The notes under the pieces are model-generated. The model was given only the letters and a program-made list of their open reading frames with translations. It did not search any database and was not told where the DNA came from. Made by a program: the position numbers and the translations under genes. Below are positions 23,051 through 54,020 of a stretch of 64,000 nucleotides of DNA, piece by piece. The DNA is from an uncultured Anaerolineales bacterium (lineage in GTDB: Bacteria > Chloroflexota > Anaerolineae > Anaerolineales > UBA11858). The number at the start of each line of letters is the position of its first letter. The stretch's first letter is position 1. The stretch lies in assembly GCA_964453155.1 (NCBI GenBank), contig CAYVQU010000002.1, forward strand, positions 11,240-75,239, read 5' to 3'.

Positions 23051-23080
23051 TGTAGGGACCCAATATATTGGGTCCCTACA
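23051..23080. repeat. REP-like palindrome variant TGTAGGGACCCAATAT/ATATTGGGTCCCTACA
   Basis: It is a 30-bp perfect palindrome. Its right arm supplies the last Leu codon and the TAG stop of the DtxR-family gene. Confidence 0.8.
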
Positions 23081-23744
23081 AGACCTCCACAAATATCTCA
23101 CAAGTAATACTCGGTCCCAAAACCACCGGTTCAGGCTGTCCGTCTACTTGAATTTTGAGATTACCATCGAAAGGCGAGATTTCGACCACCGTCAGAACCG
23201 CATGGGGTACAACGCCATTTTCGCCCAGGTAACGCAGTAATTCGGGGTCATCATCCGGAACTTGTTTGATCTCCGCCCGTTGGCCGATGGACAAATCTCC
23301 TAAACAGAGTGAAGTCGTCGCGGGGACTTTTAAATCACGAGAAGGGATCGGGGCGCCATGAGGATCATACTCCGGATTGCCTAACACTGCCGCCATCCGC
23401 TCAACAAAACGCGGCGAGATAACGTGCTCCAGGCGATGGGCTTCAGCATGCACCTCATCCCAGGGGAAGCCTAATATTTCATGGAGAAATTGTTCCAACA
23501 ACCGATGGCTGCGCGTAATTTTTAGCGCGGCATGTTCACCATCAGTGGTCAAAGTAACGCCGTAATGTTTCTTATACTCCACTAACGGCTGCTGGCTTGC
23601 GGCCAATTTCTGGATCATCCCGGTGACCGAGGCCGGTTTGACCTCCAACGCAGCGGCAATATCTTTCGTGCTGGCGCGGCCATGTTGGGCAGACAGATCG
23701 TAGATGATCTTGAGATAGTCTTGAATGGCGGGGGTTAAGTTCAT
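23076..23744 (-). CDS. DtxR/MntR-family metal-dependent transcriptional regulator with C-terminal FeoA/SH3-like domain
   Basis: The N-terminal wHTH shows AIQDYLKIIYDL...STKDIAAALEVKPASVTGMIQKL. The metal-site region shows HRLEHV...DPHGAPIP. An SH3-like tail follows. Confidence 0.85.
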   Translation of the reverse strand: MNLTPAIQDYLKIIYDLSAQHGRASTKDIAAALEVKPASVTGMIQKLAASQQPLVEYKKHYGVTLTTDGEHAALKITRSHRLLEQFLHEILGFPWDEVHAEAHRLEHVISPRFVERMAAVLGNPEYDPHGAPIPSRDLKVPATTSLCLGDLSIGQRAEIKQVPDDDPELLRYLGENGVVPHAVLTVVEISPFDGNLKIQVDGQPEPVVLGPSITCEIFVEVL

Positions 23745-23808
23745 AATTCGTGAGGCATGGAGCGTGAAGCGTGATGAATTTCAAGTCTCACGTATCACGC
23801 TTCACGGA

Positions 23809-24417
23809 TTATTTCTTTGAAAATCCAATCATTGGCAAAAACCTGCCGGTTCTGGTCATGTAATCCCGATATTCATCACCAAATTTCGCGATCAAGTTGG
23901 CTTCTTCTTGGGGGGTGCGGAACGCCATGATGATGAAGGTCAGTAAGCCCAGAAGCATGATGAACCAGTTATCGGCCATCAAGCCAAATGAGATGAAAAA
24001 GGTGGTCCCAATTGTGTAGAGGGGATGTCGCACCCAGCGATAAGGGCCACTCGTAGAAAGTTCGTGTTCTGTCCGGGTGGCACTGGTAGGGGTGATCCCG
24101 CTGCCGATGCTGCTGAACAACCAGTAAATACCGATGGTGCATAAAATACCAAGAACAGCGCCAGCCCAGCGAAAACCGACTAGCAATCCGAGTTTAGACC
24201 AGTTCATCCAGTGGGGATTGATCAAATAAGCCAGGGGGCTTAGCCACAAAACCAACCCACCAATCCGAATGATACTCAGCAGGGCAGTTCCATCGACACG
24301 ACGAGAGACTTGCTCCCCTGATTCCTGATCCGCCTTGCGCCGGAAATAGGCCGAGATGCCAAAACCAGTAAAGAAGATGAGACTAGCCAGCAGGCGAAAG
24401 ATGCTTTCGTTGTTCAT
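23809..24417 (-). CDS. ICMT/PEMT-family membrane methyltransferase
   Basis: It has YRWVRHPLYTIGTTFF...PQEEANLIAKFGDEYRDYMTRTGRFLP. Confidence 0.7.
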   Translation of the reverse strand: MNNESIFRLLASLIFFTGFGISAYFRRKADQESGEQVSRRVDGTALLSIIRIGGLVLWLSPLAYLINPHWMNWSKLGLLVGFRWAGAVLGILCTIGIYWLFSSIGSGITPTSATRTEHELSTSGPYRWVRHPLYTIGTTFFISFGLMADNWFIMLLGLLTFIIMAFRTPQEEANLIAKFGDEYRDYMTRTGRFLPMIGFSKK

Positions 24418-24489
24418 CAGTACCAGGGTTAGGGGACAAGAGTAAAGGGACAGGAAAATCCCTCAACCTTTATCCCTTCACCCCTATTT

Positions 24490-25920
24490 TTATCCTGCAA
24501 ATAACCGCCACACCTGAGCGACTACAAATGTGATTACAAAGCCCATCAGCACTGGGGCCAGCGAAGCGACCCAGGTCCATTTGGCATTGCCAGTTTCTTT
24601 GTAGATGGTGTAGATGGTTGTGCTGCACGGGTTATGGATCAGACTGAAGAGCATCAAGTTGACGGCCGTCAGTAAGGTCCAGCCCCCGGCTTGGAAGAGA
24701 GCCATTGTCTCCATTCCGGATTCAAGTTCGAACATCACGCCCGTTCCTTCGCCGACGCCGGAAACACCGGTCACCAGGACGGTTAGCATCATAATAGTGG
24801 GAATGACAATCTCGTTAGCAGGGATGGCGACAATATAGGCCACCAAGATCACACCATTCAACCCTAGGAGCAAGCCAAAGGGGTTTAGGAAATCGATCAG
24901 ATGTCCGGCGATGCTGACCCCAGCAATGTTGATATTCGCACTCAGCCACAGGACGGCGCCCGCGGGAAGGGCGAACACAATGGCGCGCCACAGCACGATC
25001 AAAGTCCGGTCGATGATGGAGGTATAGATGGTCTGCCAGATACGGGGTGGGCGATATGGCGGTAATTCCAAACTAAAGGTGGAAACTTCGCCTTTGAGCC
25101 AGGTTTTGGAGAGAAACATAGAGGTCAAAAAGGTCAGCAATATCCCTAAAAGGGCGATGCCCACCACCGCCAGGGCCGATATCACGCCGGCCAAGGCGGG
25201 CGGCACCAGCGCGCCAATGAACAGGCTGGCAATCAAAATTTGCGTCGGCCAGCGGCCGTTACAGAGGGCAAAGTTGTTGGTGATGATGGCGATCAAGCGT
25301 TCCCGGGGGCTGTCAATGATCCGGGTAGCAACTACTCCGGCGGCATTGCAGCCAAACCCCATCGTCATGCTGAGGGCTTGTTTGCCGTGGGCCCCAGCTT
25401 TGCGAAACATATTATCCAGGTTAAACGCGACCCGGGGGAGATAACCAAAGTCTTCGAGCAGCGTGAACAGCGGGAAGAAAATGGCCATCGGGGGCAGCAT
25501 CACGCTGATGACCCAGCCGGTAGCGAGGTACATCCCGTCGATCAACAGACCATCGAGCCACCAGGGCATGTTGATGGCAGCCGCCAGCCCCTTAAGCCAG
25601 GGATGGATGGTATCCAGGAAGAGAGTCGCCAGCATTGAGGAGGGTACATTGGCTCCCGAGATCGTCAGCCAAAAGACGATCATCAGCAGGAGCAGCATCA
25701 GGGGGAAACCCCAGACCCGACTGGTTAAGATTTGGTCAAGTTTGCGGTCAAAATCGAAGCGCGGTTTCTCTTCGGGGCGAGTCACGGCTCGGTCGGCGAT
25801 TTGGGCCGCGTCGGTATACATCGTTTCCATCAATTTTTCGTGAAAATCCACACCGACTTCCCAGCGCAGGGATTGAGCGGCATTCAGAATTTCATCGGGG
25901 GAGGTTGTGTTTGTGGTCAT
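24490..25920 (-). CDS. feoB: FeoB membrane (gate/nucleoside-recognition) portion, separate ORF
   Basis: Its N-terminus aligns with the end of the FeoB helical domain (AAQIADRAV...[19 protein letters not shown]), and the polytopic FeoB core follows. A GGAG RBS lies 7 nt before the ATG. Confidence 0.85.
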
Positions 25921-25934
25921 AATTTCTCCGTGGT

Positions 25935-26002
25935 CAGTGAACAGTTATCAATGGTCGGTAATCAGTGAGCACTGTTTACTGCTAACCGATAACTGTTTAC
26001 TG
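25935..26002. repeat. nested hairpin element at the FeoB split point
   Basis: CAGTGAACAGTTATC (25935-25949) pairs with GATAACTGTTTACTG (25988-26002), matching 14 of 15 positions. An inner pair is CGGTAATCAGT / ACTGCTAACCG. The stop codon of the G-domain ORF (25997-25999) lies in the right arm. Confidence 0.7.
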
Positions 26003-26833
26003 ATTCCCGATCACTTGCAACTGTGCGGCCCGGGACTCAATATCACCATGCGTCAAATCGCCAAGTTCACCCCGGCGCAGGGCCTCGGCAATGCGTTCGT
26101 CGCCGTCGAGGAGGCGGAGGGCCACCCACCGGGCATTGGGCAGCTCGGGGTAAGCGGTTTCGATTTGAGCTGTGAGTTGGGAGACCGCTTTTTTGAGTTC
26201 GGGTGAGTCATAGTTTACTTTGTAGGGGTTTCCGACGACCTCGCCGCTGGCAACTTCATTGACAGCCTGCAAAAGTTCGGGAACCCCTTCACCTTGACGG
26301 GCCACCATTGGAACCACCGGCACCCCTAAATCCCGTGCCAGCCGCCGTTCATCAATATCGAGGCCGTGCCGCTGAGCTTCATCCATCAAATTCAGGGCCA
26401 CGACGGCTCGATTGGTAATTTCCAAGACCTGTAAAACCAGGTTCAAATTGCGTTCCAGGCGGGTAGCATCCACCACCACAATCGTCACATCTGGTTGGCC
26501 AAATAGAATGAAATCGCGGGCCACTTCCTCGTCCAGGCTGGTTGCCAGGAGGGAGTAGGTGCCGGGGAGATCTACGAGCTTGAACTTGGCATCGGCATAC
26601 TCAAAACCACCTTCAGCGCGCGTCACAGTTTTGCCAGGCCAATTGCCCGTGTGCTGACGCAGACCGGTCAGAGCATTGAAAACGGTGCTTTTTCCCGTAT
26701 TGGGGTTCCCAGCCAGGGCGATCACATAATCGAAATCCGTCATATCGACGCCGAGTTTACGCAACGCAGCCGCATTGTGAACCGGGCAAGTAGCGCAGCC
26801 GTCGGCAGAGACATTAACATTGGTTGTCATCAT
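25997..26833 (-). CDS. feoB: FeoB N-terminal GTPase plus part of the helical domain, separate ORF
   Basis: It has G1 (GNPNTGKST), G3 (DLPG), G4 (NLMD) and RWVALRLLDGD of the helical domain. It ends inside the repeat element. Confidence 0.85.
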   Translation of the reverse strand: MMTTNVNVSADGCATCPVHNAAALRKLGVDMTDFDYVIALAGNPNTGKSTVFNALTGLRQHTGNWPGKTVTRAEGGFEYADAKFKLVDLPGTYSLLATSLDEEVARDFILFGQPDVTIVVVDATRLERNLNLVLQVLEITNRAVVALNLMDEAQRHGLDIDERRLARDLGVPVVPMVARQGEGVPELLQAVNEVASGEVVGNPYKVNYDSPELKKAVSQLTAQIETAYPELPNARWVALRLLDGDERIAEALRRGELGDLTHGDIESRAAQLQVIGNQ

Positions 26834-26914
26834 TTTTTTCCTTCACTTTTTGCATACCGTAAAGCGTGATACGTACTTACAAATCATCACGCATCACGGT
26901 TTACATTTCAGGTA

Positions 26915-27949
26915 TCAGCATTCCCCCATTTCGGGGCAAACGGTAATTAACTTAGCTTGTGATTTGCGCAGGGCAATCACTGCTCCGCGGACACGATAAG
27001 CGATGGGATCACCGCCGGCCGATGCCATCTCGACTTCAATGGTCGTACCGGGTAGTAGACCGAGGTCCATTAAGCGGCGGCGTTCGGCCCCTCGAATTCG
27101 AGGGGATACTTCTACGACCTCGGCTTCTTGACCGGGTTTGAGATTGGTCAGCGGTTCTCCGGGGACAGCCTCGGCTTCAGGTTGTTCGGCTACCGGGACC
27201 ACCGCGATATTGTTGGCCAAAATTGGCGCCAGAATATGTTCATCACCCCCGGCCCAAAAGCGGACCCGTTGAGACGAGGTCTCGAGCAATCGAACTTCCT
27301 GACCGACATGCAGACCCTCCGCGACGAGTTGGGCATAAACCGCCTCAGGCTCATCTTCCATATGGATGATGCGGGCCGGGGTATTTAGATCGAGTTGGGT
27401 CAGGGCTTTGCGGTCAGCGGGATAGACCACAGTCCCGTCAGCCATGGGGATGGGGTCGCCATGGGGGTCATGGGTGGGATTCCCCAGTTGGTAAGCCAGT
27501 TTTTCGACCTCTTCTGGAGTGAGTTGATGCTCCAGCTGATGTGCTTTGGTGTGCCATTCGGATTCTTCAAAACCGGTCTGTTCGGCCAGATAGCGTTCAT
27601 AGATGCGATGGGCGCGAATGACTCGCAGGGCATAATCGCGCCCCGCGGTTGTCAGGCTGAAGTCAGTGCCGGCCATTTTGATGAGATCATGAGCCTCGAG
27701 ATTAGAGATCACATCCGCAGCCTGACTGGTGCTGATGTTCAGAGCACCTGCCAGACTCTCCACGGAAGGTTGTCCACCGTGAATGTCAAAATCATGAATA
27801 TGTTTGAGCGCATCCTCGTTCAAGACACGGTCCGTCATTTCATTGGTACGCTGCCAACGCCAGTACAATCCGCGTTCAGGCCAAAAGATCAACAGGCCCA
27901 CGGCTGTCAGCACGGCGGCGATGATTAAGGAAGATAAGGGATCGGGCAT
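26915..27949 (-). CDS. membrane-anchored DtxR-like regulator fused to two FeoA domains
   Basis: It has an N-terminal TM helix (LIIAAVLTAVGLLIFW), a DtxR-type wHTH with dimerisation/metal region (RAHRIYERYL...HQLEH...DPHGDPIP), and two FeoA/SH3-like repeats. The second repeat is LKPGQEAEVVEV...LMDLGLLPGTTIEV. Confidence 0.75.
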   Translation of the reverse strand: MPDPLSSLIIAAVLTAVGLLIFWPERGLYWRWQRTNEMTDRVLNEDALKHIHDFDIHGGQPSVESLAGALNISTSQAADVISNLEAHDLIKMAGTDFSLTTAGRDYALRVIRAHRIYERYLAEQTGFEESEWHTKAHQLEHQLTPEEVEKLAYQLGNPTHDPHGDPIPMADGTVVYPADRKALTQLDLNTPARIIHMEDEPEAVYAQLVAEGLHVGQEVRLLETSSQRVRFWAGGDEHILAPILANNIAVVPVAEQPEAEAVPGEPLTNLKPGQEAEVVEVSPRIRGAERRRLMDLGLLPGTTIEVEMASAGGDPIAYRVRGAVIALRKSQAKLITVCPEMGEC

Positions 27950-34586: not shown

Positions 34587-36326
34587 TTATCCTAATCCCA
34601 ACAACAAACCACCCTGGAAGACGACAAAGGCCATCATCCAGGCCAAAACCAACTGCCCCAGGATCGAAACCCAGGTCCATTTCATCCCGAGTTCCTGGCG
34701 TTCGGCCGCGACGGCAACCATGCAGGGAGTGTAGATCAACACGAAGACCATAAAAGCCAGGGCTGCCAAGGCCGCGTGACCACCACTGGAAGTCTCAAAC
34801 CCGGATCGAATCGCACCCATCAGGGCACTGGGCTCTTCTTCAGCATCTTCATCAAACAAATTGATCCCCACAATCAGCGGCAGAGATTTAAGCGTGTCAC
34901 CGGTCGCGCTGACGAAGGAGGTTACAATTTCGCGCAGGTCCGCCCCAAAGGTGGTCGGTTCAGCTGCAGCCTCGGCTTCTTCGACATCATAGACCTGCGA
35001 CATGGTGCTGACGACCACTTCTTTGGCGACAAACCCGGTCAGCAGGGCGCTGCTGGCTTGCCAGTTGCCAAATCCCAAAGGTTTTAGCAGTGGAGCGGTG
35101 ACCCGGTTAATACCCGCGAACAGGCTGTTTTCTAGGTCTACCTCGGCAAACGGTTCCCCCTGAACAATTGGGGTCGCCATCAAAATCCAGATCAAAATGG
35201 AGGTGCCTAAAATAATGGTGGTGGCATTCTTCAAAAAAGTACCAACCCGCTTCTGGACGTAGATCCCGACGGATTGCATGTTCGGCCAGCGGTAAGGGGG
35301 CAACTCGATGATCAAGGCTGATTGTTCTTTGCCTTTGAAAACCGTGTTGCGCAAGATCACCCCAAAAACCAGAGCGGTTAAGATCCCCAATAGATACATG
35401 CTGAATACGGCCGTCCCGGCATTATTCGAGAAGAAGATGGCTCCAAACAAAATATAAACCGGCAGGCGGGCCCCACAGCTCATGAAGGGCACCAATAACC
35501 CAGTCAGAATCCGGTCTTTCTCGTTTTCGAGGGTGCGGGTGGCGTAAAAGGCTGGTACTGTGCACCCAAATCCGACCAGCATCGGCAAGAAGCTCTTGCC
35601 GTGCAATCCGATGGCACTCATCACCCGGTCCATCACAAAAGCCCCGCGGCTCATATAACCGGTGTCTTCCAAAATCGCCAGCGCCAGATATAAGAACCCG
35701 AGTACCGGTACAAAAACCAGCACGCCACCGACCCCGGCAATGATCCCGTCCACAAACAGGCTGCTGACCCAGGTATCCCCCAGACCCAACGCGGCGATAA
35801 TGGCGGCCACCCACTTGGTAATTGGACCGCCGATCAACCCATCAACCCAATCCAAATAGGGCGCCGAGACTTCGGCCGTCAATTTGAACACGGCCCACAT
35901 GACGACTAAGAAAATGGGAATACCCAGGTAGCGGTGTGTCAGGATACTGTCCAAGCGATCAGAAAAAGATACCGAGGCGGTCGCGGGGCGTGAAACCGCG
36001 TTATGCACCAATTGGTTGATCCACTGATAGCGCCGGTCGGCGATCTGGACGTCTAAATCTTCACCGTGGATTTCCCGCAGCCGGGCCACGCTTTGTTTGG
36101 ATTTCTCAATTAGATCCGAGCCCCCTTGTAAAGCCAATAATTTGATCTGAATATCGCGATCTTCTTCCAGTAATTTGATCGCCACCCAGCGAGCCGGGTA
36201 TTTGTCCTGAATTTGGGGGTGATTGCCAATCTCATTAATCAGGGACCCAATTTCGATTTCTAACTCGGTCCCATAGTTAATTTTGAAGGTATTGTCTACC
36301 GATAAAGTTGATTCTGCAAAACTCAT
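34587..36326 (-). CDS. feoB: FeoB helical plus membrane portion, separate ORF
   Basis: It starts at the helical domain (ARWVAIKLLEEDRD...QIADRRYQWI...LDSILTHRYLGIPIFLVVM), and the full polytopic FeoB core follows. GAGGA lies upstream of the ATG. Confidence 0.88.
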   Translation of the reverse strand: MSFAESTLSVDNTFKINYGTELEIEIGSLINEIGNHPQIQDKYPARWVAIKLLEEDRDIQIKLLALQGGSDLIEKSKQSVARLREIHGEDLDVQIADRRYQWINQLVHNAVSRPATASVSFSDRLDSILTHRYLGIPIFLVVMWAVFKLTAEVSAPYLDWVDGLIGGPITKWVAAIIAALGLGDTWVSSLFVDGIIAGVGGVLVFVPVLGFLYLALAILEDTGYMSRGAFVMDRVMSAIGLHGKSFLPMLVGFGCTVPAFYATRTLENEKDRILTGLLVPFMSCGARLPVYILFGAIFFSNNAGTAVFSMYLLGILTALVFGVILRNTVFKGKEQSALIIELPPYRWPNMQSVGIYVQKRVGTFLKNATTIILGTSILIWILMATPIVQGEPFAEVDLENSLFAGINRVTAPLLKPLGFGNWQASSALLTGFVAKEVVVSTMSQVYDVEEAEAAAEPTTFGADLREIVTSFVSATGDTLKSLPLIVGINLFDEDAEEEPSALMGAIRSGFETSSGGHAALAALAFMVFVLIYTPCMVAVAAERQELGMKWTWVSILGQLVLAWMMAFVVFQGGLLLGLG

Positions 36327-36346
36327 TGTTTTCCTCGATGCTGCAG

Positions 36347-36847
36347 TTAGGTGTTGGTTGAGGTGGCCACGATGGCATCCAATAACTGCCCCAGCCCTTT
36401 CTCTGCCCGGGCTACCGTCCGGACGACCGGCACATCCAAAGCTGCGGTCAGGGCTTGTTCTTGGACCTTAATCCGCTTGGAATCAGCGACATCAGTCATA
36501 TTGAGGGCCAATATCACCGGAACTTCGGTCTCCAAGACCTGGACGGTCAGATACAGATTGCGTTCCAGGTTGGTCGCATCAACTACATTCACAACTAGAT
36601 CGGGTTTTTCATTCAAAATAAAGTCACGGGCAATAACCTCTTCTGGTGAAAAGGCGCTTAAACTATAAGTCCCTGGCAAATCTACAATCCAGATTTCCTG
36701 GCCTTTGTGTTTGAAAGTGCCTTCTTTTTTCTCGACCGTTTTTCCAGGCCAATTGCCCACGTGTTGCCGCGCCCCCGTCATGGCATTAAATAAAGTCGTT
36801 TTTCCGGCATTGGGGTTGCCCGCCAAGCCTACTAAGATGGGTTTCAT
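36347..36847 (-). CDS. feoB: FeoB GTPase domain, stand-alone ORF
   Basis: It has G1 (GNPNAGKTT), G3 (DLPG) and G4 (NMTD). I chose the ATG at 36847 (MKPILVGLAG). The stop lies 20 nt before the next feoB ORF. Confidence 0.85.
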   Translation of the reverse strand: MKPILVGLAGNPNAGKTTLFNAMTGARQHVGNWPGKTVEKKEGTFKHKGQEIWIVDLPGTYSLSAFSPEEVIARDFILNEKPDLVVNVVDATNLERNLYLTVQVLETEVPVILALNMTDVADSKRIKVQEQALTAALDVPVVRTVARAEKGLGQLLDAIVATSTNT

Positions 36848-36979
36848 AAAGTGTGATGTCTGATACCATTTTCGCATATTTCGGCAAGAATCTGAAAATA
36901 AGAAGATCCATCAAGCCAAAATTTGCTCAGGTGTGGCGTTAAAATTTGCTCGTTTTATTATTAGCAACAAACCGCCAAC

Positions 36980-37213
36980 TTATCCAATCAAGTCGACGCT
37001 GATTTTATTGGCCATCCCTCGCCCAATGGCGATGCGTGAATCCCGCACCGAAATCAACAATGGGCCACCGTTATCATGTAGTACCGAGAATTCAACCCCC
37101 GGGGTTAACCCCAATTCGGCCAAACGATGACTAAAGCGCCGTCCGGCATCTGCCCGGACCATTCGTACTTTTTGTCCGACTGAGACATTGGATAAAGATA
37201 AAGAATCAGACAT
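36980..37213 (-). CDS. feoA: FeoA
   Basis: It has an SH3-like FeoA pattern (VGQKVRMVR...LAELGLTPGVEFSVL). The ATG at 37213 overlaps the stop of the upstream regulator gene. Confidence 0.8.
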   Translation of the reverse strand: MSDSLSLSNVSVGQKVRMVRADAGRRFSHRLAELGLTPGVEFSVLHDNGGPLLISVRDSRIAIGRGMANKISVDLIG

Positions 37214-37916
37214 TTTGCTCCTCAACAAGGATAGTATCAGCGATATCTTTAGTCACCGTCACTTGTTCACCCTGATCGGTTTCTACCAAAAAATTTCCCG
37301 ATCCATTGGCCGCGATAATGCTGCCACGGGTCCCCGGAAATATTCCCGCGTCCGTCAAGAAAACTTGAACATTCTCGGCCCCATCGACGTTGACAACTTG
37401 GAATACTTTTCCAACCTTCATGGCGCTTAAGGCCACGCTGGGGATACGTTGGCCCTGATCTTTGGCCGGGTAAATGGGTTTGCCATGAAAGCACACAGCA
37501 GGGTCTTCCAAAAACGTCGAGAGCCGGTTGGCCACATCTTCCGAAGTGATATGCTCCAACTGACAGGCCAGTACATCGGCCTCCTCAATCCCCATCTTCA
37601 GGGCTTTGACCAGGAAAACCTCCCACATCCGGCGATGGCGCAAAATCGTGTTCGAGATCGAGCGCCCCTCGGCGGTGAGTTCTACACCCTTGTAGGGAAT
37701 GTAGTTTACATAACCCGATTCAGCCAATTTTTTAACCATATGATTGACCGACACCGGCTGCACGTCCAACGCCGCCGCGATTTTGGGGATCGGGATCACC
37801 GCATTATCACCCTCTTCGCTGATTTGGCGAATGGTCACCAGATATTGATCTTCACTGCTGGTTAGAATGTTGTGATGAGACATAAGATATTCGCTATAAA
37901 TTTTATGCTTGGGCAT
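37206..37916 (-). CDS. DtxR-family metal-dependent regulator with FeoA/SH3-like C-terminal domain
   Basis: It has a wHTH (IPKIAAALDVQPVSVNHMVKKLAESGYV), RHRRMWEVFL, and CQLEH...CFHGKPIY. An alternative start lies at 37883. Confidence 0.8.
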   Translation of the reverse strand: MPKHKIYSEYLMSHHNILTSSEDQYLVTIRQISEEGDNAVIPIPKIAAALDVQPVSVNHMVKKLAESGYVNYIPYKGVELTAEGRSISNTILRHRRMWEVFLVKALKMGIEEADVLACQLEHITSEDVANRLSTFLEDPAVCFHGKPIYPAKDQGQRIPSVALSAMKVGKVFQVVNVDGAENVQVFLTDAGIFPGTRGSIIAANGSGNFLVETDQGEQVTVTKDIADTILVEEQNV

Positions 37917-45225: not shown

Positions 45226-45253
45226 GTAGGGGCGCAATATATTGCGCCCCTAC
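45226..45253. repeat. REP palindrome GTAGGGGCGCAATAT/ATATTGCGCCCCTAC
   Basis: It is a 28-bp perfect palindrome between the ileS stop and the RAYT RBS. Confidence 0.9.
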
Positions 45254-45271
45254 CCGTATTGGGAGGAATTT

Positions 45272-45823
45272 ATGACCAGGGGACGAAAACCAAAATACGA
45301 TCCACAAAAACACCAGCGTAAATCCATTCGGTTGCGGGGCTATGACTACACCCAAGCAGGCGCGTATTTCGTGACCATTTGCACTTATCAGCGGGAATGT
45401 TTGTTCGGTGAAATTATGAACGAGGAAATGGTCTTAAACGAATTGGGTGTTATTGCAAATGAATGTTGGCGCGCCCTTCCTGAACATTTCCCTCGCGTAG
45501 AATTGGGGGCGTTTGTGGTTATGCCTAATCATGTGCATGGGATTGTTATCATTACCGAATCCAAGGTAGGGGCGCAGCATGCTGCGCCCCTACGACAGCA
45601 ATCAATAAACGTGAAACCCGGATCACTAGGCGCAATTGTGCGTTCATTCAAAGCCGCCGCCACTCGCCGCATTGGACGCGAACAAGGCATATCAGGCATT
45701 TGGCAGCGCAATTATTACGAACACATCATTCGCAACGAGGTCGGCCTGCACCGCATTACTGCTTACATCGAAGCTAACCATGCAAATTGGGAAACAGATA
45801 GTGAAAACCCTAAAAATATTTGA
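45272..45823 (+). CDS. REP-associated tyrosine transposase (RAYT, IS200-like Y1 HUH family)
   Basis: It has the HUH motif (PNHVHGIVII) and the catalytic region WQRNYYEHIIRNE...ITAYIEAN. A GGGAGG RBS lies before the ATG at 45272. REP palindromes lie upstream, inside and downstream. Confidence 0.85.
   Translation: MTRGRKPKYDPQKHQRKSIRLRGYDYTQAGAYFVTICTYQRECLFGEIMNEEMVLNELGVIANECWRALPEHFPRVELGAFVVMPNHVHGIVIITESKVGAQHAAPLRQQSINVKPGSLGAIVRSFKAAATRRIGREQGISGIWQRNYYEHIIRNEVGLHRITAYIEANHANWETDSENPKNI
45566..45593. repeat. REP palindrome variant GTAGGGGCGCAGCAT/ATGCTGCGCCCCTAC inside the RAYT CDS
   Basis: It is a 28-bp perfect palindrome, in frame, encoding VGAQHAAPL between the HUH and Tyr motifs. 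Confidence 0.85.
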
Positions 45824-45862: not shown

Positions 45863-46498
45863 ATGCGCATTTTAGCCCTTTGCGACGACATCTGGCATCC
45901 GGCGCAAGTTGTTCAAGACGGGTTGTTAGGTCTAGAAAAACACGGTTTTGAATTCGACTTCATAACTAACGCGCGGGAATGGTCTTCCGAGCGAATGGCC
46001 GAATATCCGCTGGTGATTTTGGCAAAGGCGAATAATATCTCAGCCGCTGATGAAACGCCCTGGATGATACCCGAAGTGGCGCAGGTTTTTCAGGAGTATG
46101 TCCAGACCGGGAATGGGTTGTTGGCAATCCATTCGGGGACGGCGGGATATGCGGATACACTGGTTTTACGGAGGGTGTTGGGTGGTGTGTTTCGAGAGCA
46201 TCCGGAGCAGTGTGAGGTGACAATAAAATCCGTCGTAGGGGCGCAATATATTGCGCCCCTACCATCTAACGAATTCTCCATTATGGATGAACATTATTTC
46301 ATGGAATTGGATGATGATCAGGCCACAGTGTTTATGACAACCACGTCCGAACATGGGACCCAACCGGGGGGTTGGACGCGGATGGAGGGGGATGGAAGGG
46401 TGTGTGTGTTGACACCAGGGCATAATTTGGCGGTATGGGAGCAGCCGGTGTATCAGGATTTGATTGAGCAGGCAATAAATTGGGCTGGTAATTTGTAG
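45863..46498 (+). CDS. ThuA-like (class I glutamine amidotransferase-like fold) protein
   Basis: It is 211 aa with a ThuA-type layout (MRILAL.DD.WHP...LLAIHSG...HPE...TPGHN). It contains an in-frame REP palindrome. Confidence 0.6.
   Translation: MRILALCDDIWHPAQVVQDGLLGLEKHGFEFDFITNAREWSSERMAEYPLVILAKANNISAADETPWMIPEVAQVFQEYVQTGNGLLAIHSGTAGYADTLVLRRVLGGVFREHPEQCEVTIKSVVGAQYIAPLPSNEFSIMDEHYFMELDDDQATVFMTTTSEHGTQPGGWTRMEGDGRVCVLTPGHNLAVWEQPVYQDLIEQAINWAGNL
46235..46262. repeat. REP palindrome identical to 45226-45253, inside the ThuA-like CDS
   Basis: It is a 28-bp perfect palindrome, in frame, encoding VGAQYIAPL. Confidence 0.9.
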
Positions 46499-47296: not shown

Positions 47297-47305
47297 TGCT
47301 ATAAT
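47297..47305 (+). promoter_or_regulatory. extended -10 promoter element (TGcTATAAT)
   Basis: TGCTATAAT lies at 47297-47305. A GGGAG RBS lies before the ATG at 47364. Confidence 0.45.
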
Positions 47306-47363
47306 CCAAATTGGTGTTATCTTTTTTGGCATTCCATGTGCGCGCATCCGAAGGGAGTGGATC

Positions 47364-50300
47364 ATGGCAAAGAGAAAGTGGAACCCAGGGATTGAAGTTT
47401 TGGTCGCCATCATTGGGATGGTTGGATTAGCTGCGTTGGCATTTTCCCAAATATCTGCATTGAGCGCTAGCAGTGAGGCCTGGCATGTGGCTGTCGTAGG
47501 CCCCATGAGTGGAAAAAACCAGGCCAAAGGCCAAGAAATGGTGCAAGGGGTAAGCCTGTATATCGATCAGATCAATGCTCAAGGGGGTATTAACGGTAAA
47601 CCGGTAAGACTGCTGCCCCCATATGATGATCAAAATGATCCCGATTTAGCGCGGCAAGCGGCCGAAAAAATCGCGGCCGAAAGTCAGGCCTTGGTGGTGT
47701 TTGGCCACCGCTCGACTGAAGCCTCGGTGGCCGGTGGTGCAATCTATCAAGAATATGGGGTTCCAGCCATCTCAGGGTCGGAGGCCGAAACCGAGGGCAA
47801 TGACTGGTACTTTCGCACGACTTCCAGCAACCAGGATCAAGCGATCTTTTTAGCCAACTACGTTCGCCGGATTTTGGGACAGGAGACGGTCAGCATCATA
47901 TTTGATCAAGATACCTATGGGACTTCAATCGCTGAGAATTTTGAGTATACCTTCCAAGGATTAGGGGGAGAGATCAAATTTAAATGGAGTTTTGATACCC
48001 AAACCGGTGATTTAGAGGCCCAAATCGACGAAATCGTAACCGCCCTGCTCAAAGCCCGCAACGACAACCCCGGGATGCTGTTCATGTCCACGCATGGTAA
48101 TGAAGCCGTCAAAATCGTAACCGCGCTACGGCGTAAGGGGTTGAAATATGCCATAATCGGTACTGATTCCTTAGGAACCCCGGCAATGGGTGAAAAATTT
48201 GCGACCTATCCTGAAGAGCAAAGCCAGCCCGGCTATCTCTCCGATGGAATATATGCCGTCACCGATGTCCTCTTTGATGTCGGTGGTGAGGAGGCGGCCC
48301 AATTCAAGAATTATTTCATTAAAGCCTATGGGGAAGATCCCGGTTCGCGGGCCGCCACTTACTATAACGCCGCTATTGCCGCCTTCCACGCCATGGAACA
48401 GGCCGACCTGCAGGGGGATTCTATCAATTTGGCCGCCGACCGGTTGAAAATCCGCAACCAACTTCTAGCCTTGAATAATCTCAATAATATCGCCACCGGC
48501 ATCGGCGGCCCGGTTTTTTTCGATGATCATGGCGATGTGGTTAAGGCCATGTCGATGGGCATATTTGATCACCAAAAATTCATCTCAGCGCTGACCCAAC
48601 TCAAACCGATTACCGATCTCAACCGCATCCCCGATCTCAATGCCGAATTGGCGGCAGGACGGGTACATGTGGTCAATGGCGAATATATGCTCCAGACCAA
48701 CGTGGTCTACGCGGGGATGGATATTAATGAAATCAGCAACCTAGATATCAAAAATTCATCGTACACGGTTGATTTTTACTTGTGGTTCCGCTATCGCGGC
48801 GATTTTGAACCCGATAATATCGAGTTCATCAACATCAAGGGAAAGACCAATCTGGGCGAACCGATCATCCATGATGTGATCGATGGCGTCACTCACAAAC
48901 TGTACCGGATTAAAACCGAGTTTATCGGTGATTTTTCTTTTTACGATTACCCCTTCGATGAGCAGGATGTTGAGATTAAATTTCGACATATCAGTATGAC
49001 CCGCGACCAACTGCTGTACGTGGTCGATGTGGTCGGCATCCGGGAAACCGCCAGCCAGGATATTTTGGCAAAATTCGACCGGGCGCAGGTCCTCGATTCC
49101 ATCGACACCTGGGAGGCAACCACAGTTAAGTTTTTCCAGGATTCACTCCATAATGAATCTACGCTCGGTTCGCCCCACTTCTTTGACACCGTTTCAGACA
49201 TCGAATATTCCCGTTTCAACGCCAATATTGGTCTCAAGCGCGATGTACTCAGCTTTACGATCAAAAACCTGCTGCCCCTGTTTGCCATCATCATTCTAGC
49301 CTATATTGCCGCTTTGCTGGCCCCGGCGCAGTTTGCAATCACCAACGCCATTTTGCGCGGCTCACTGCTGACGGTAGCCTTCTTTCATATCAAATTGTCG
49401 AACGATCTCCCTGGCATCGGTTACACCGTGGCCCTCGATTATGTGTTTTATATGATGTATGTGTTGATCGTCTTGCTCCTCATTTTGACGGTTCTCAGTC
49501 ATAATGATCATCAAAATAACCAGTTAAAACGGGCCAGAGTGTTTAACCAGATTGGGCGGATACTTTATCCGGTGGTCATCTTGGGATGTGGAATATTCTT
49601 TGTGACCCGGTTTGATCTGCTGACCCGTTTCAATGTGGCGGGAATGGCGGAATCCGAGGCATTAACGGCTACCGCCGATGAGGCTGCCGCTCCCACTGCC
49701 TCACCCGGTGAGGGGGCGGCTGACGAGGCAGTCGTCCTCACTTTGGGTTCCTGGCGGGTCGAGGACGACGAGCAAATGACCCGCATCCTGGATATTTTCA
49801 ACGCCGAACATCCTGATATCACGGTGAAATTCTCCCCCGGGGTTGAATATCAGCCGACCCTGACGTTCCAACTCGAGAATGGGATCGCGCCCGATCTGTT
49901 TTATATATCGTCTTATTCATTCTCCCAAAATCTGTTCAAACGGGGATTTTTGGAAACCGTAAATGATGTTCCCGGTCTGAACGAGAGTTTCCCCGCGGCG
50001 GCGATTGCAGCCTGGGCTACGGATGATGGCACAGTCTATGGGGTGCCCTTCCTGGCCGTTTCCCATGGGGTGTATTACAACCAGGATATTTTTGATGAAC
50101 TTGGACTGGCAATCCCAACCACCTGGGAAGAATTCCTGACCGTTTCTGAGCAAATCAAAGCAGCCGGATATATTCCGCTCGCTAATGCTCCTGGGCAGCA
50201 TGGCGCGTTTGCGGAAGAAGTTTTCATGAATTTAGCCCCCAATTTCATCGGCGGTCAGACCGGGAGGGAGCAGTATTTAACCGGGGAACGCTGCTTTAAC

Positions 50301-50912
50301 GATGCGCACACAACTGCAGCCTACCAGGCAGTTTTAGATTTAGGTCCTTATTTGCCTGAAAATGGAACCGAACTCAGTTCCCATGATAGCAAGCGGATGT
50401 GGCTAGATGGTGAGGCCACCATGATGATGGGCGGTTCGTGGGATATCTCGTTTTTCGAAGGGCAGGCTCCCGATTTTGAGTGGAGTATTTTTGCCATCCC
50501 TGCGCCGGAGGGGCAAACGCAATACGTAACTTTCCATCCCGACGCAGCCATTGGTCTGAGTGCGGCATCCCCACATAAAGCTGAAGCCAAAATCTTCTTG
50601 GAATGGTTGACAACCCCCAAAGTGGCCGAATTGCTCAATAATGAACTGCCGGGCTTTTTCTCCATGCAAAGCTACGCGCCCGAAATTCAAAACGAACACG
50701 CCAATACCTTCTTGGGTCTCAACCAGGGTCGAGGTACCGATGTCCGCTGGCCGTACCCGGTCCTGCGGGACAGCATCCCCGATGGATTTGCGCTGATGAA
50801 AGATGGAACCGCCGCGGTCATTCGAGAAGAAATGACACCCCAAGAAGCTGCTGATGCCCTGCAAGCAGGCTTGGCCCAATGGTTTAAACCGGCGCAAGTC
50901 TGTGGAAAATAA
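47364..50912 (+). CDS. tripartite fusion: LivK-type periplasmic binding domain + pentameric ligand-gated ion channel (ECD + 4 TM) + family-1 solute-binding domain
   Basis: It has a signal-like N-terminus. Residues ~40-400 look like Peripla_BP_6 (VAVVGPMSGKNQAKGQEMVQGVSLYIDQINAQGGINGKPV). Residues ~445-628 form a pLGIC extracellular domain with YPFDEQDVEIKF. Residues ~629-750 contain M1 (NLLPLF), M2, the M2-M3 loop LPGIGYTVALDY, M3 and M4. Residues ~788-1182 look like a sugar-type SBP. Confidence 0.8.
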   Translation: MAKRKWNPGIEVLVAIIGMVGLAALAFSQISALSASSEAWHVAVVGPMSGKNQAKGQEMVQGVSLYIDQINAQGGINGKPVRLLPPYDDQNDPDLARQAAEKIAAESQALVVFGHRSTEASVAGGAIYQEYGVPAISGSEAETEGNDWYFRTTSSNQDQAIFLANYVRRILGQETVSIIFDQDTYGTSIAENFEYTFQGLGGEIKFKWSFDTQTGDLEAQIDEIVTALLKARNDNPGMLFMSTHGNEAVKIVTALRRKGLKYAIIGTDSLGTPAMGEKFATYPEEQSQPGYLSDGIYAVTDVLFDVGGEEAAQFKNYFIKAYGEDPGSRAATYYNAAIAAFHAMEQADLQGDSINLAADRLKIRNQLLALNNLNNIATGIGGPVFFDDHGDVVKAMSMGIFDHQKFISALTQLKPITDLNRIPDLNAELAAGRVHVVNGEYMLQTNVVYAGMDINEISNLDIKNSSYTVDFYLWFRYRGDFEPDNIEFINIKGKTNLGEPIIHDVIDGVTHKLYRIKTEFIGDFSFYDYPFDEQDVEIKFRHISMTRDQLLYVVDVVGIRETASQDILAKFDRAQVLDSIDTWEATTVKFFQDSLHNESTLGSPHFFDTVSDIEYSRFNANIGLKRDVLSFTIKNLLPLFAIIILAYIAALLAPAQFAITNAILRGSLLTVAFFHIKLSNDLPGIGYTVALDYVFYMMYVLIVLLLILTVLSHNDHQNNQLKRARVFNQIGRILYPVVILGCGIFFVTRFDLLTRFNVAGMAESEALTATADEAAAPTASPGEGAADEAVVLTLGSWRVEDDEQMTRILDIFNAEHPDITVKFSPGVEYQPTLTFQLENGIAPDLFYISSYSFSQNLFKRGFLETVNDVPGLNESFPAAAIAAWATDDGTVYGVPFLAVSHGVYYNQDIFDELGLAIPTTWEEFLTVSEQIKAAGYIPLANAPGQHGAFAEEVFMNLAPNFIGGQTGREQYLTGERCFNDAHTTAAYQAVLDLGPYLPENGTELSSHDSKRMWLDGEATMMMGGSWDISFFEGQAPDFEWSIFAIPAPEGQTQYVTFHPDAAIGLSAASPHKAEAKIFLEWLTTPKVAELLNNELPGFFSMQSYAPEIQNEHANTFLGLNQGRGTDVRWPYPVLRDSIPDGFALMKDGTAAVIREEMTPQEAADALQAGLAQWFKPAQVCGK

Positions 50913-51263
50913 TCGCTGAATAGGACACGGAGCATTCCAATGTTCTACATTGGAACGAGATACGCACTGGGGTATTCTGGTTATAGTGCTCTGCGTCGTA
51001 ACCAAACCAGCACACTCCGCGTGCCGTTAATCCATGATAGAATGCCCCGGCATGGATACCTTACGCTATCGCCTCATTGCTCAAATATTTTTCGTTTTCG
51101 GAGGAGTTTCTCTGGCCTGCCGTCCAGTGATGACCATTGGTTGGCAGGAAATGTTGATATTGATCGTAATCTTGGGGATATTGATCGGACCAGCGTTATT
51201 CCGGTTGTATAAACGGTGGGATGAGTTTCAGCGGTGGCGATCCAGAGATCAAGATAAGCAGGA

Positions 51264-54020
51264 TTAATGACCGATACTTTTCGGAATAGCTGGTACCGAT
51301 AAGGGGCAAATCAATTCTTCGGGATCGGGTACTCGAGTAAAAATTTGTGGTTCGGTACCTAATACTGCCACGGCTGCTGCTTCAACTTCGTGTATGGAGC
51401 GACCACGGCAACCAATAATTAACACATCAGCAGCGTGAAAAATATCGGGGGGAGATGGTAACAAGGGCAAGATTACCTGTTTGGCACCATTGGTACTCAA
51501 TGTTGTTAGCACTAACCTAGAGAACGGTTGAATCCGATAGCCACGGGTACCATCGCCTTGTCTGGCCCAAAAATAACGCGGGTACAAACCCCGCCCCACG
51601 AAAGCCAGGGCATCCGGTTGTTGCAAGAACTGCTCAAAATCAGCTGGTTCATAATCAGTTTGAGTCAGTAATGCTTCTTGGGATAACGTATTGAGCACCT
51701 CTTCGGTTGTAACGGGGTGATAGCGGAGCGGAATCGTTCGGTCTAAAGCCGTAATAGTAAGCATGAAAACTACAAATGGAACCAAACTCCAAGCTCCCAC
51801 CGTAAATGAAAGTGGTCTTACAACTATTTCATCAGATTCTAGCTTTGGGGAAAATCCAAAAAGGGTTAACCCGACCCAGATCAGCTGAAGCAATCCCAAC
51901 GCGAAATAGAGCAATACAACCCAATTGATCGGCACAATATAACGCCCCCCGCCATTCCGGGCCAGGGCGGTAGCCGTATTGTAAGCCAAGTAAATTCCCA
52001 TGGGTATCAATCCAGCTAAATGCCATTTTTGGAACGCTTTTGCAATTCCCAAGGCCAGAATCAACAAATTGATGGCGATGGCAATTTTATCGATGAGGGG
52101 TAAATCCATCAACCAGTCATCTGCAGTATCTCGCCAGTAGCGACTGCTTTCAAAAATAGTACCCGTTCGGATTTCGTTCGGAAAATGGGCCAAGATAGAC
52201 TGGGTTGGCAGGATCAGCACACTGGTGATGAGATTATGACTAAAGTAGTTAAAAATTCGATAAACTGTCCCGTAACGGTGAAATTCAGGTTCAACCGGTT
52301 GAGCGGCTTGAACAGTAGGTTGAGGACTTCCAGCCTCAACTTGTTCAGCAGTAGTGGTTACGGCTTGATCAGTTGAAAGAGTTGTAGGTGTGGGGCTGGG
52401 AACCGGGGTTGTTTTGGGCTGGATCAATGGATTAGCTTTGGAATTAGGTGAGGGCGCCCCTCGAAAACCACTATCGAACACCAGTGCGATTTGATGCGTA
52501 AAGAAAAATGGGTTTCCCGATATAGACCAACTTCGCCACATCCAGGGTGAGACAACCAAAAGAAAGGAAATTATGACAATGGCTACGTATTTCAGGCTGG
52601 TTTTCAGATCTAGTCCAAAAACCATAATTATTCCTACCAAGGCCGCCAAAAAGACGACCAGGCCATTGAAACGAAACATAATCAACAACCCCAGTAATCC
52701 CCCTAAAAGTATGGCGTAACCTGGACTTTTGTGCGGTTTTCGCAGCCAAAGGAACATCAGGAGAGCAATCCCCACCAAGCTAACCGCACTGGGAAATTCG
52801 GTCAACAGCAATTTTGAATGTGATAAATTCAATTCGTTGCTAGAAAGAATCGCATTTATCTCATGTAAGATTGCTAAACCCGCTAAAAAAAGACCTAGAT
52901 AACGATTATACATCTCCTTCCCCAACCAAAAAAGTAGGGCGGGTAAAATTGACAAAATACCAACTTGCAATGTCATGATGGCTTCATAATCTTGACCGAC
53001 AAGCAGATGGAAAATGAGTAAAAGGCCCGAATAACCAGCATGGTCGGCCCGGGCTAGACTATTGGCTAGGCCTTGACCGATGAGCGCAAACTGCGCATTA
53101 GTATCCCAGGAGGCAGCATCAGAAAAAGGGTAATATTCGTTACCCGGCAAAATTGGTTTGGGCAAAAAATAATTTTGCTTAAATGATGTATTTTGCCACA
53201 TCACAAAAGCCAACATCCAAACACTAAAAAATAGGATTACGTTAATGATGCTTTGAGTAAGTTTAAGGTTTTTAAGCGCCAACAGCAATATTGTAATTAG
53301 ACCCGCACAAATTGCGGCCAGCCCGACCTGGCTTCCTAATATCGGCACACCAACTTCGTACCAAACGGTCCATTTATCAGATTGAATGCCCAACCCAGAA
53401 TAAACCAATCCCCCCCAACTGCTCAACAAAAGAATATAGACACCCCCAGCCATAGTGATATAAGGTATTTGATCTCGATTCAGTTTCGGCCAGGATGCGT
53501 TATTTGTGAGTGTCTTTATAAGCAGAATTGTTTGCCAACTTATTTGGGTAGTCAATAACATGGCTGGGCGGAGGCGCACAATGTAAGCCTGCCAGTTCCC
53601 AAAACGATTGCCAGGCACCAAGAGAAGAAATATTGTCAAAATAGCTACTAATTGGGAAATTCGAATAACAAGCCAGCTCAAATTCGGGCTAGAAGTGAAG
53701 GTTTTTTGAACTCGGACGCTCCAAGCTGGCTTACGCCGTGCCTGAATACCAGCCCAAATGGCTAGGAATAATAAAAAAATAAATACCCCGGCAAGCCCCA
53801 TCCGGAATTTTGAAAACCCGAACAGCCAATTGGATTTTTGATCAGTGGGAATGTTCAGCAAACAAAACAAATTTCCAGCTGAGCCTAACGCGGCCAGAAT
53901 AAAATAAACCGAAAAAACTGAACGTACTGAATATTGGGTTTCGGTTGAGTTGTGTGTCAAGTTCCGCTGCCTCTTATTACCACCCAAATCGTCCGAAATA
54001 AAATATAAAAATCCATCCAA
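51264..54020 (-). CDS. very large polytopic membrane protein with internal Pro/Thr-rich linker and C-terminal soluble domain; function unknown (possible GT-C-like enzyme)
   Basis: It is 918 aa with more than 15 hydrophobic segments. The linker is [45 protein letters not shown]. It is the last gene of the glycan operon. The start is uncertain because it overlaps the upstream gene by 64 nt. Confidence 0.45.
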   Translation of the reverse strand: MDGFLYFISDDLGGNKRQRNLTHNSTETQYSVRSVFSVYFILAALGSAGNLFCLLNIPTDQKSNWLFGFSKFRMGLAGVFIFLLFLAIWAGIQARRKPAWSVRVQKTFTSSPNLSWLVIRISQLVAILTIFLLLVPGNRFGNWQAYIVRLRPAMLLTTQISWQTILLIKTLTNNASWPKLNRDQIPYITMAGGVYILLLSSWGGLVYSGLGIQSDKWTVWYEVGVPILGSQVGLAAICAGLITILLLALKNLKLTQSIINVILFFSVWMLAFVMWQNTSFKQNYFLPKPILPGNEYYPFSDAASWDTNAQFALIGQGLANSLARADHAGYSGLLLIFHLLVGQDYEAIMTLQVGILSILPALLFWLGKEMYNRYLGLFLAGLAILHEINAILSSNELNLSHSKLLLTEFPSAVSLVGIALLMFLWLRKPHKSPGYAILLGGLLGLLIMFRFNGLVVFLAALVGIIMVFGLDLKTSLKYVAIVIISFLLVVSPWMWRSWSISGNPFFFTHQIALVFDSGFRGAPSPNSKANPLIQPKTTPVPSPTPTTLSTDQAVTTTAEQVEAGSPQPTVQAAQPVEPEFHRYGTVYRIFNYFSHNLITSVLILPTQSILAHFPNEIRTGTIFESSRYWRDTADDWLMDLPLIDKIAIAINLLILALGIAKAFQKWHLAGLIPMGIYLAYNTATALARNGGGRYIVPINWVVLLYFALGLLQLIWVGLTLFGFSPKLESDEIVVRPLSFTVGAWSLVPFVVFMLTITALDRTIPLRYHPVTTEEVLNTLSQEALLTQTDYEPADFEQFLQQPDALAFVGRGLYPRYFWARQGDGTRGYRIQPFSRLVLTTLSTNGAKQVILPLLPSPPDIFHAADVLIIGCRGRSIHEVEAAAVAVLGTEPQIFTRVPDPEELICPLSVPAIPKSIGH

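Follow-up and report, generated by a model that had tools for sequence, protein, structure and literature searches.

Within a 64,000-nucleotide stretch of an uncultured Anaerolineales bacterium (contig CAYVQU010000002.1, positions 11,240 to 75,239; this whole stretch is referred to here as the window), a single open reading frame (ORF) on the forward strand, at 47364..50912, starts with ATG and encodes a protein of 1182 amino acids plus a stop codon. The encoded protein almost certainly comprises, in this order, a signal or anchor helix, a LivK-type type-I periplasmic binding domain (PBP-I), a complete subunit of a ligand-gated ion channel of the pentameric type (pLGIC), a tether, and a sugar-type substrate-binding protein (SBP) domain. 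The hydrophobic N-terminus, PGIEVLVAIIGMVGLAALAFSQISALSA (residues 8-35, 47385..47468, forward strand like all parts of the ORF), reaches a hydropathy maximum of 2.35 and ends in ALSA; AlphaFold2 modelled it as a helix at residues 8-33, followed by low-confidence residues 32-36, and it may act as either a signal peptide or a signal anchor. The LivK/LivJ-like PBP-I domain (residues 41-397, 47484..48554), placed by Pfam and by phmmer against the PDB, is followed by the pLGIC extracellular beta-sandwich (residues 434-626, 48663..49241), which was delimited by AlphaFold2 strands, Foldseek and motif conservation and harbors the Pro-loop YPFDEQ (residues 529-534, 48948-48965) within YDYPFDEQDVEIKF at residues 527-540. 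The transmembrane domain (TMD), helices M1-M4 (residues 628-749, 49245..49610), was assigned from AlphaFold2 helices, hydropathy and phmmer. Beyond M4 lie 433 residues, comprising an apparently disordered tether (residues 753-787, 49620..49724) and a family-1, carbohydrate-type SBP domain of the PBP-II fold class (hereafter the C-domain; residues 788-1182, 49725..50909), which was recognized by Pfam and PDB matches. In the full-length AlphaFold2 model (predicted local distance difference test [pLDDT] 84.5, predicted template modelling score [pTM] 0.76), the connection between the PBP-I domain and the upper end of the channel's extracellular domain (ECD) was well ordered (pLDDT ~80-90 over residues 400-445), and residues 753-787 formed the sole long low-confidence stretch, with a pLDDT <50.

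Both flanking domains matched Pfam far above the respective cut-offs. Peripla_BP_6 (PF13458) was matched at residues 41-397 with an E-value of 2.2e-38 and 133 bits (cut-off 31.7), covering profile positions 3-334 of 343, with the related ANF_receptor as an overlapping match (E 1.3e-16), and the LivJ structures 1z15 and 2liv matched the same domain at E ~4e-15 (3.5e-15 for 1z15); its stretches GHRSTEAS and ISGSEAE were compared by eye with LivJ motifs. At the other end, SBP_bac_1 (PF01547) was matched at residues 805-1088 (E 1e-33, 118 bits vs a cut-off of 26), with the related SBP_bac_8 as an overlapping match (E 6e-30). In NCBIfam, a branched-chain amino-acid SBP subfamily was assigned to residues 23-404 and carbohydrate SBP models to residues 789-1114. 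With the core between them identified by its fold, as described below, the order of PBP-I, pLGIC and post-M4 SBP that the original prediction had read from the letters was borne out, as was the Ala/Glu/Thr-rich linker that it had placed after M4.

For the identity of the middle part, Pfam and NCBIfam were dropped as proof owing to their sub-cut-off scores and were replaced by sequence matches in the PDB and a fold search. The original prediction had expected four domains in Pfam, of which Peripla_BP_6 and SBP_bac_1/8 were found, whereas Neur_chan_LBD (13.6 bits vs 26) and Neur_chan_memb (17.3 bits vs 28.1) stayed below threshold. In NCBIfam, the pLGIC models were also below cut-off, with TIGR00860 (LIC) reaching an E-value of 1.2e-7 but 30.8 bits vs 280, and NF033918 (LGIC_1) scoring 16 vs 500. 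A Pfam check alone would therefore have looked negative, because the curated pLGIC profiles stay under their cut-offs; the core subfamily is divergent enough for these models to miss it, and some relatives of the protein do have precomputed PF02932 or PF02931 matches. In direct comparisons by phmmer, residues 418-767 alone matched solved pLGICs, namely the GABA-A alpha5 TMD (3e-9), DeCLIC (1.8e-6), GLIC (1e-5) and ELIC (~5e-6), with the latter match aligning query 70-334 to chain 75-318 and thus spanning both the ECD and the TMD. An AlphaFold2 model of the core (residues 405-775, built on an alignment of 69 sequences) was obtained with a mean pLDDT of 90.7 and a pTM of 0.83 and displayed a beta-sandwich followed by four long helices. 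Structural comparison of this model with the PDB by Foldseek returned exclusively pLGIC subunits as top matches (GLIC, a GLIC-GABA-A chimera, GABA-A and GluCl; E ~1e-19), among them both open and closed channel structures. These alignments extended over ~335 columns, corresponding to the whole GLIC chain, with target-normalised TM-scores of 0.70-0.78 (0.73 for GLIC 6hz0, at E 3e-19, and 0.78 for the chimera 5osb).

The sequence motifs of the core point in the same direction. The original prediction had quoted YDYPFDEQDVEIKF, the pre-M1 Arg (R626), KNLLPLF with P638, and LPGIGYTVALDY (residues 682-693), all of which were located where it had placed them, and the reported lack of a Cys-loop pair held as well, with only three cysteines (742, 977 and 1180) in the whole protein. 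Among the 69 aligned cores, the Pro-loop residues P530 and D532 were kept in 68 and 69, respectively, R626 in all 69, and the M1 proline P638 in 62; the M2 9' position (L669; TMD register set by the GABA-A alpha5 alignment) was hydrophobic in 65 of the 69 and Leu in 50, and the M2-M3 loop proline P683 was kept in 57 of 65. The positions through which the ECD is coupled to the pore are thus kept, as would be expected of a functional pLGIC. Judged by its modelled fold and its motifs, the middle part belongs to the pLGIC superfamily, in agreement with the original reading. Reading the M2 alignment by eye gave no obvious charged selectivity ring in the pore, and no prediction of ion selectivity was drawn from M2 for this reason.

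The hydropathy profile displayed one N-terminal segment (residues 8-35) and the M1, M3 and M4 spans, with M2 being amphipathic, while the AlphaFold2 helices corresponded to residues 628-651 (M1), 654-681 (M2), 690-717 (M3) and 721-749 (M4). The M3-M4 loop, NDHQNNQLKRARVFN, is short and rich in Lys and Arg, as expected for the cytoplasmic face. The N-out start followed by four helices places the post-M4 domain outside the membrane. Among 23 three-part relatives, the tether spans 31-53 amino acids and is unconserved and low in complexity, and the Cys pair of the C-domain is largely kept (C977 in 21 of 23, C1180 in 20 of 23), which fits a putative disulfide bond in an oxidising compartment. The number of helices after the N-out start, the basic M3-M4 loop and the Cys pair thus all support the extracytoplasmic placement that had been proposed for both binding domains.

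Since an unusual fusion could also arise from a chimeric assembly, from two genes read through as one, or from an erroneous frameshift within the linker, we considered the evidence for such an artefact. The linker is of low complexity, and a terminator-like, GC-rich hairpin of 11 pairs with a T-poor tail was flagged inside the ORF at the linker/SBP boundary (49712-49739, forward strand). Terminator-like matches in the region were not in significant excess, however (9 found vs 5.0 +/- 2.1 expected), and this hairpin is probably meaningless, though it is placed exactly where a two-part product would end. One metagenomic relative (L001:2578-6144, ENA ERZ27250278 k141_372461), which is collinear with the three-part gene over its whole length at 43% identity, was split into three genes by the callers. 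Its use as evidence for separate genes was rejected, as it forms one 1188-codon frame with two point-like in-frame stops, a TAG at 3448-3450 opposite Ser and a TAA at 5209-5211 opposite Glu; it is probably a recent pseudogene, a strain variant, an assembly error or an error-bearing copy. Within the window, base composition is even across the ORF (GC 0.45-0.53) and does not jump where the linker lies. NCBI, JGI and ENA contain a 1182-aa protein identical to that of the window (P0166), recorded for six contigs, and the one of these contigs that was displayed, from a JGI sample, carries the same neighbour genes as the window. A further relative with 87% identity has a recognisably homologous linker, and one uninterrupted ORF was found in 19 genomes. 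These findings effectively refute an artefactual origin of the long ORF, including the chimeric join or frameshift in the linker region that the original prediction had wanted to see excluded.

We further examined how widely this architecture is distributed. GTDB species representatives were scanned with the core alignment, which gave 332 relatives, from which 79 loci were kept and 83 core copies examined; a word-indexed search with the core alone had given 16 matches, and an exhaustive search together with the genome scan found more. In all 83 copies, save a few contig-truncated or disrupted ones, the ORF that holds the core also encodes a PBP-I domain. In at least 19 species-representative genomes (of the 79 kept loci), a single stop-free ORF runs through the linker into a C-domain homologue with 36-59% identity to that of the window. 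These 19 genomes belong to three phyla, represented by Chloroflexota (Anaerolineae, Caldilinea), Cyanobacteriota (Trichodesmium, Pseudanabaenaceae and others) and Beggiatoa-type Gammaproteobacteria (Parabeggiatoa, Halobeggiatoa, Marithrix and Thioploca). In an exhaustive phmmer search of 1.84 billion representatives, ~23 clusters at 50% identity aligned end to end with the query (for example P0017, query 20-1180 vs 22-1190, 47% identity), and about a quarter of the close relatives continue past M4 with a tether and an SBP of ~395 amino acids. Hundreds of relatives carry public names such as 'ABC transporter substrate-binding protein' or 'branched-chain amino acid transport system substrate-binding protein', where ABC stands for ATP-binding cassette. 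The channel suspected of being new is therefore not singular, being one member of a populated and conserved family that is filed under misleading names; the part of the novelty claim that stands is the folded post-M4 domain, of which the literature found holds no description. As a separate observation, and by an impression gained from locus and protein names, the PBP-I-pLGIC relatives seem concentrated in filamentous, multicellular or gliding bacteria. Such hosts include Anaerolineae, Caldilinea and Chloroflexia, the Beggiatoa-type sulfur bacteria, Thiomargarita, Thioploca, the cable bacteria Electrothrix, Desulfonema and Candidatus Magnetomorum, as well as the filamentous cyanobacteria Moorena, Trichodesmium, Okeania and Planktothrix.

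The closest solved relatives of the C-domain are the RafE-type structures 2hq0/2heu and 6pql (~2e-22), with matches also to NagB2 (a chitin-oligosaccharide binder), XylA and the maltose-binding protein (MBP). When the C-domain alone was used as the query, hundreds of free SBPs of 420-470 amino acids were found at 55-63% identity, many of them from Chloroflexota. On long contigs, all four sampled free homologues (six loci) head canonical importer operons, composed of the SBP and two BPD_transp_1 permeases, after which comes either a URO-D-family gene or a MalK-type ATPase. In L085-L088 and L090, we observed a conserved operon in which the SBP and its two permeases are joined by a gene of the URO-D family (PF01208), often with ROK, PIG-L and SIS genes nearby; the URO-D-family gene is unusual for a sugar-importer operon. 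A different setting was found for the free homologue P0069, after which a histidine kinase and a pair of response regulators are encoded in the same orientation; another free homologue is an orphan. An origin of the C-domain from a 'sensory SBP lineage', suggested by P0069, was withdrawn when four further free homologues proved to sit in ABC-importer operons; P0069 nevertheless represents at least one other instance of sensory re-use of this SBP family. By sequence comparison, the C-domain thus derives from an ABC-importer transport SBP family. In the C-domain tree, the free SBPs group tightly in a single clade next to the window's subclade, and divergence is far greater among the fused domains, which would fit changed constraints after fusion, within the limits of rooting and sampling. 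The fused C-domains keep, at >=90% conservation, the polar and aromatic residues that sugar-binding sites typically carry. Having been captured from ABC-importer SBPs, the C-domain probably retains the ligand of that family and recognizes the same sugar that those importers take up.

This origin raises the alternative that the C-domain is simply a tethered SBP that serves an ABC importer encoded elsewhere, with the channel acting mainly as its anchor or with the two functions merely co-located. Monoderm Chloroflexota must anchor their SBPs, and fusion to a membrane protein is one way of doing so. The close identity to free SBPs, the importer operons around all four sampled homologues and the conserved sugar-site residues would all suit this explanation. 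The genomic context speaks otherwise. Neither an ABC permease nor an ATPase was annotated in the flanks of the window gene, as the original prediction had noted, and no such gene recurs among the 65 ORFs that flank the 19 three-part genes, which argues that the channel gene is not part of a transporter. Moreover, diderm cyanobacteria and Gammaproteobacteria, which need no anchoring of SBPs, carry the fusion as well; what would serve as the anchor is in every case a pLGIC whose gating motifs are intact, never an arbitrary membrane protein; and the fused C-domains are much more diverged than the free SBPs, suggesting changed constraints. We therefore consider a tethered transport component an improbable, though not negligible, explanation. 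Two suspected sugar ABC operons were also dismissed, as the one in L070 proved to consist of EamA/ROK/fasciclin genes and the one in the window at 24.5-28 kb of FeoAB/DtxR-type genes. In a Rosetta-stone check within +/-6 kb of two-part channel genes, no stand-alone C-domain homologue was found beside them.

The position after M4 is modular, as other binding domains occupy it in several relatives. A different SBP_bac_8 domain follows M4 in P0047 and in a gene of Electrothrix marina (L009:1812-5441), a Bmp/PnrA-like domain in P0055, and an SBP_bac_1 domain followed by an SBP_bac_5 domain in the 1662-aa P0168. At the opposite end of the protein, P0083 was observed to carry extra N-terminal TPR repeats. 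In a rough neighbour-joining tree of the cores, three-part members are scattered among two-part ones. Tandem channel-gene paralogues were seen in L020, L021 and L026, and also in L028 and L055; in the first three of these loci, one copy has a post-M4 SBP and the adjacent copy is without it. The scattered three-part members and these mixed tandem pairs indicate that the C-domain has been repeatedly lost or gained, and the tandem paralogues raise the possibility of heteromeric channels. Such gain and loss, together with the faster evolution of the fused domains in comparison with free SBPs, could also be expected if the C-domain bound no external ligand and served as an assembly, localisation or autoinhibitory module, for example by binding an envelope polysaccharide to position the channel. 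We regard this alternative as unlikely, given that the window's C-domain is 55-63% identical, over its full length, to functional-looking transport SBPs, that its clamshell is modelled with high confidence, and that the other post-M4 modules in relatives are bona fide small-molecule binding families.

Many relatives depart from the family plan at the pore itself, keeping the PBP-I domain and the whole pLGIC-type beta-sandwich and then switching, after the pre-M1 region, to an MscS-type channel that usually bears a cyclic-nucleotide-binding domain (P0097, P0111, P0161, P0222, P0229, P0244-P0251 and others). These hybrids pair a pentamer-type ECD with a heptamer-type channel. One of them, P0097, shares 40% identity with residues 32-652 of the window protein, and its Pro-loop is decayed to RPAFRQH. 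That the same PBP-I-plus-ECD module can work with another output lends some weight to the notion that the pLGIC core of the window protein is non-conducting and provides a scaffold on which two binding domains are displayed for nutrient scavenging or for signalling to a partner; the sub-threshold Pfam scores and the lack of clear selectivity-filter residues are compatible with it as well. Yet P530/D532, R626, P683 and the hydrophobic 9' gate are strongly conserved, the model is highly confident over the four-helix bundle, for which channel structures in both the open and the closed state were matched, and the Pro-loop has decayed precisely in the hybrid that lacks a pLGIC pore, so its retention here speaks for a functional pLGIC. 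A non-conducting scaffold accordingly appears to us a rather unlikely state of the core.

Among described systems, the nearest are the bacterial pLGICs with an N-terminal PBP-I domain, or with MCP-N plus Cache domains, reported by Tasneem, Iyer, Jakobsson & Aravind in 2005 (PMC549065), with PBP-I examples named from Magnetospirillum magnetotacticum and Bradyrhizobium japonicum. The window protein shares with these PBP-I-pLGICs the order of signal peptide, PBP-I, ligand-binding domain and four transmembrane helices, but whereas they end after M4, it adds the tether and the SBP, and it can best be regarded as an extended form of that class. The same study described conserved operons in which bacterial pLGICs occur with stand-alone PBP-II genes, and proposed their cooperation (PMC549065). 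In both cases, a PBP-II-class protein is associated with a pLGIC, whereas the association in the window is covalent and lies C-terminally after M4; with such operons known since 2005, the fusion represents a covalent form of a known association. The suggestion that a pLGIC flanked by two unrelated binding domains may be new has to be narrowed in this light, since the N-terminal PBP-I fusion and the PBP-II operons were already known and only the covalent post-M4 form stands. DeCLIC, a structurally characterised pLGIC from Desulfofustis with an N-terminal domain (PDB 6v4a and others; PMC9897478, PMC12664993), is likewise a prokaryotic channel with an accessory periplasmic domain, which in its case modulates gating; that domain is N-terminal, however, with two beta-rich lobes and no clamshell, and DeCLIC is without a post-M4 domain. 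A 2026 preprint describes the family as an ECD plus a TMD, with only an optional N-terminal domain in prokaryotes. We found no description of a folded post-M4 domain of a pLGIC in the literature, where coverage of subscription journals was incomplete, so that its absence is not proof. The three-part architecture is thus undescribed in what we found, mis-annotated, conserved and widespread.

Two further comparisons concern the way in which the binding domains might be used. Transport SBPs are re-used with membrane partners in several systems, including maltose-binding protein with Tar, LuxP with LuxQ, and the ABC importers GlnPQ and OpuA with fused substrate-binding domains. As in these, an ABC-type binding protein would be the input of a membrane protein in the window; unlike in these, the partner is a ligand-gated ion channel and the attachment is at the extracellular end of M4. 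By analogy, the window protein resembles the SBP-dependent receptors in its supposed function. The ionotropic glutamate receptors (NMDA/AMPA) combine a PBP-I amino-terminal domain with a PBP-II ligand-binding domain (PMC549065), so that in both proteins a PBP-I domain is followed by a PBP-II clamshell on one ion channel. In the glutamate receptors, however, a tetrameric P-loop pore is inserted within the PBP-II domain, whereas the window protein has a pentameric-type four-helix pLGIC between its two domains; as the pores are unrelated, the likeness is one of analogy.

In light of these comparisons, the most likely role of the protein, to which we give somewhat better than even credence on the grounds of sequence and models, is that of a two-input sensor channel. 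In this scenario, the protein would assemble as a homopentamer, or together with its tandem two-part paralogue where one is present, and its N-terminal clamshell would close on an amino acid or a small amide-type ligand. The closure of the PBP-I domain would then be passed to the beta-sandwich, biasing gating, and the tethered C-domain, when loaded with sugar, might dock on the extracellular ring and modulate gating, paralleling the action of free binding proteins on chemoreceptors and sensor kinases. The output would be an ion flux, and hence a change of membrane potential, that reports two nutrient classes together. The integration of two ligands for which the original prediction had argued would be part of this scenario. 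Several points weigh against such a role. For every member of the family, function is read from sequence and monomer models, and the AlphaFold2 model, being a monomer, carries no information on the docking of the C-domain. The C-domain is dispensable for basic function, given the interspersed two-part members, and most of its free homologues are ordinary transport SBPs, with which a transport-related role is still compatible. To these are added the sub-threshold scores of the curated pLGIC models and the lack of an obvious charged ring in M2.

More tentatively, and with more doubt than belief, we suggest that pLGICs under two different Venus-flytrap domains, one rigidly mounted on the ECD and the other tethered to M4 for docking, may form a natural class with a modular slot and may represent an independent invention of glutamate-receptor logic; their filamentous hosts would hint at chemo-electrical signalling along or between cells. 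To our knowledge, the native ligands and physiological roles of GLIC, ELIC and DeCLIC are still largely unknown. In the family described here, the inputs of the channel can be guessed from its fused domains, an amino-acid/amide-type PBP-I and a sugar SBP, which makes the discovery of agonists tractable; the importer SBPs that are 55-63% identical to the C-domain occur in loci with ROK, PIG-L and SIS genes. With a folded domain attached to M4 at its extracellular end, these channels also provide a natural probe of the influence of the M4 tip on gating, and the presence of PBP-I plus PBP-II on a pentameric pore offers a striking parallel to the glutamate receptors. Since these channels are annotated as substrate-binding proteins, domain-based censuses of bacterial ion channels miss them.

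The expression signals of the gene were also inspected. An extended -10-like element, TGcTATAAT (47297..47305, forward strand), was read from the sequence, with no good -35 and no call by the consensus scan, and a Shine-Dalgarno-like AGGGAG (47352..47357, forward strand) lies 6 nt before the ATG. Downstream, a hairpin, TTCCAATG-TTCTA-CATTGGAA (50935..50955, forward strand), lies 23 nt past the stop codon; a T-tract is absent, and it went uncalled in the terminator scan. The promoter and hairpin that had been attributed to the gene are therefore present as sequence, but they were uncalled by the scans and are not statistically notable.

Upstream of the channel gene, on the same strand, are genes for an isoleucyl-tRNA synthetase, an IS200/RAYT-like protein, a ThuA-like protein and a short-chain dehydrogenase/reductase; downstream, on the other strand, are a 918-aa membrane protein and a glycosyltransferase cluster. 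A perfect 28-nt palindrome, GTAGGGGCGCAATATATTGCGCCCCTAC, was observed at 45226-45253 and again at 46235-46262, with a diverged third copy at 45565-45596. One GTAGGGGCGCAATATATTGCGCCCCTAC copy falls within the ThuA-like ORF and is translated there as '...GAQYIAPL...', and the diverged copy lies inside the IS200/RAYT-like ORF (45242-45823), whose Y1_Tnp match (E 2e-4) is below the cut-off. To judge by their sequence, the palindromes look like a repetitive extragenic palindromic element accompanied by the RAYT transposase that belongs to it, immediately upstream of the channel gene. The 918-aa protein (51264-54020, reverse strand) is polytopic, has no Pfam match at E <= 0.001 and adjoins a cluster of sugar transferase (Bac_transf) and WecG-family glycosyltransferase genes; possibly, it is a large enzyme, either a glycosyltransferase or a polymerase, whose family is unmodelled. 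Elsewhere in the window, two ferrous-iron uptake loci were found on the reverse strand (23076-27949 and 34587-37916), both with FeoB parts and DtxR-type repressor-FeoA fusions, and in the first of them two ORFs make up FeoB, one for the N-terminal GTPase and one for the membrane part.

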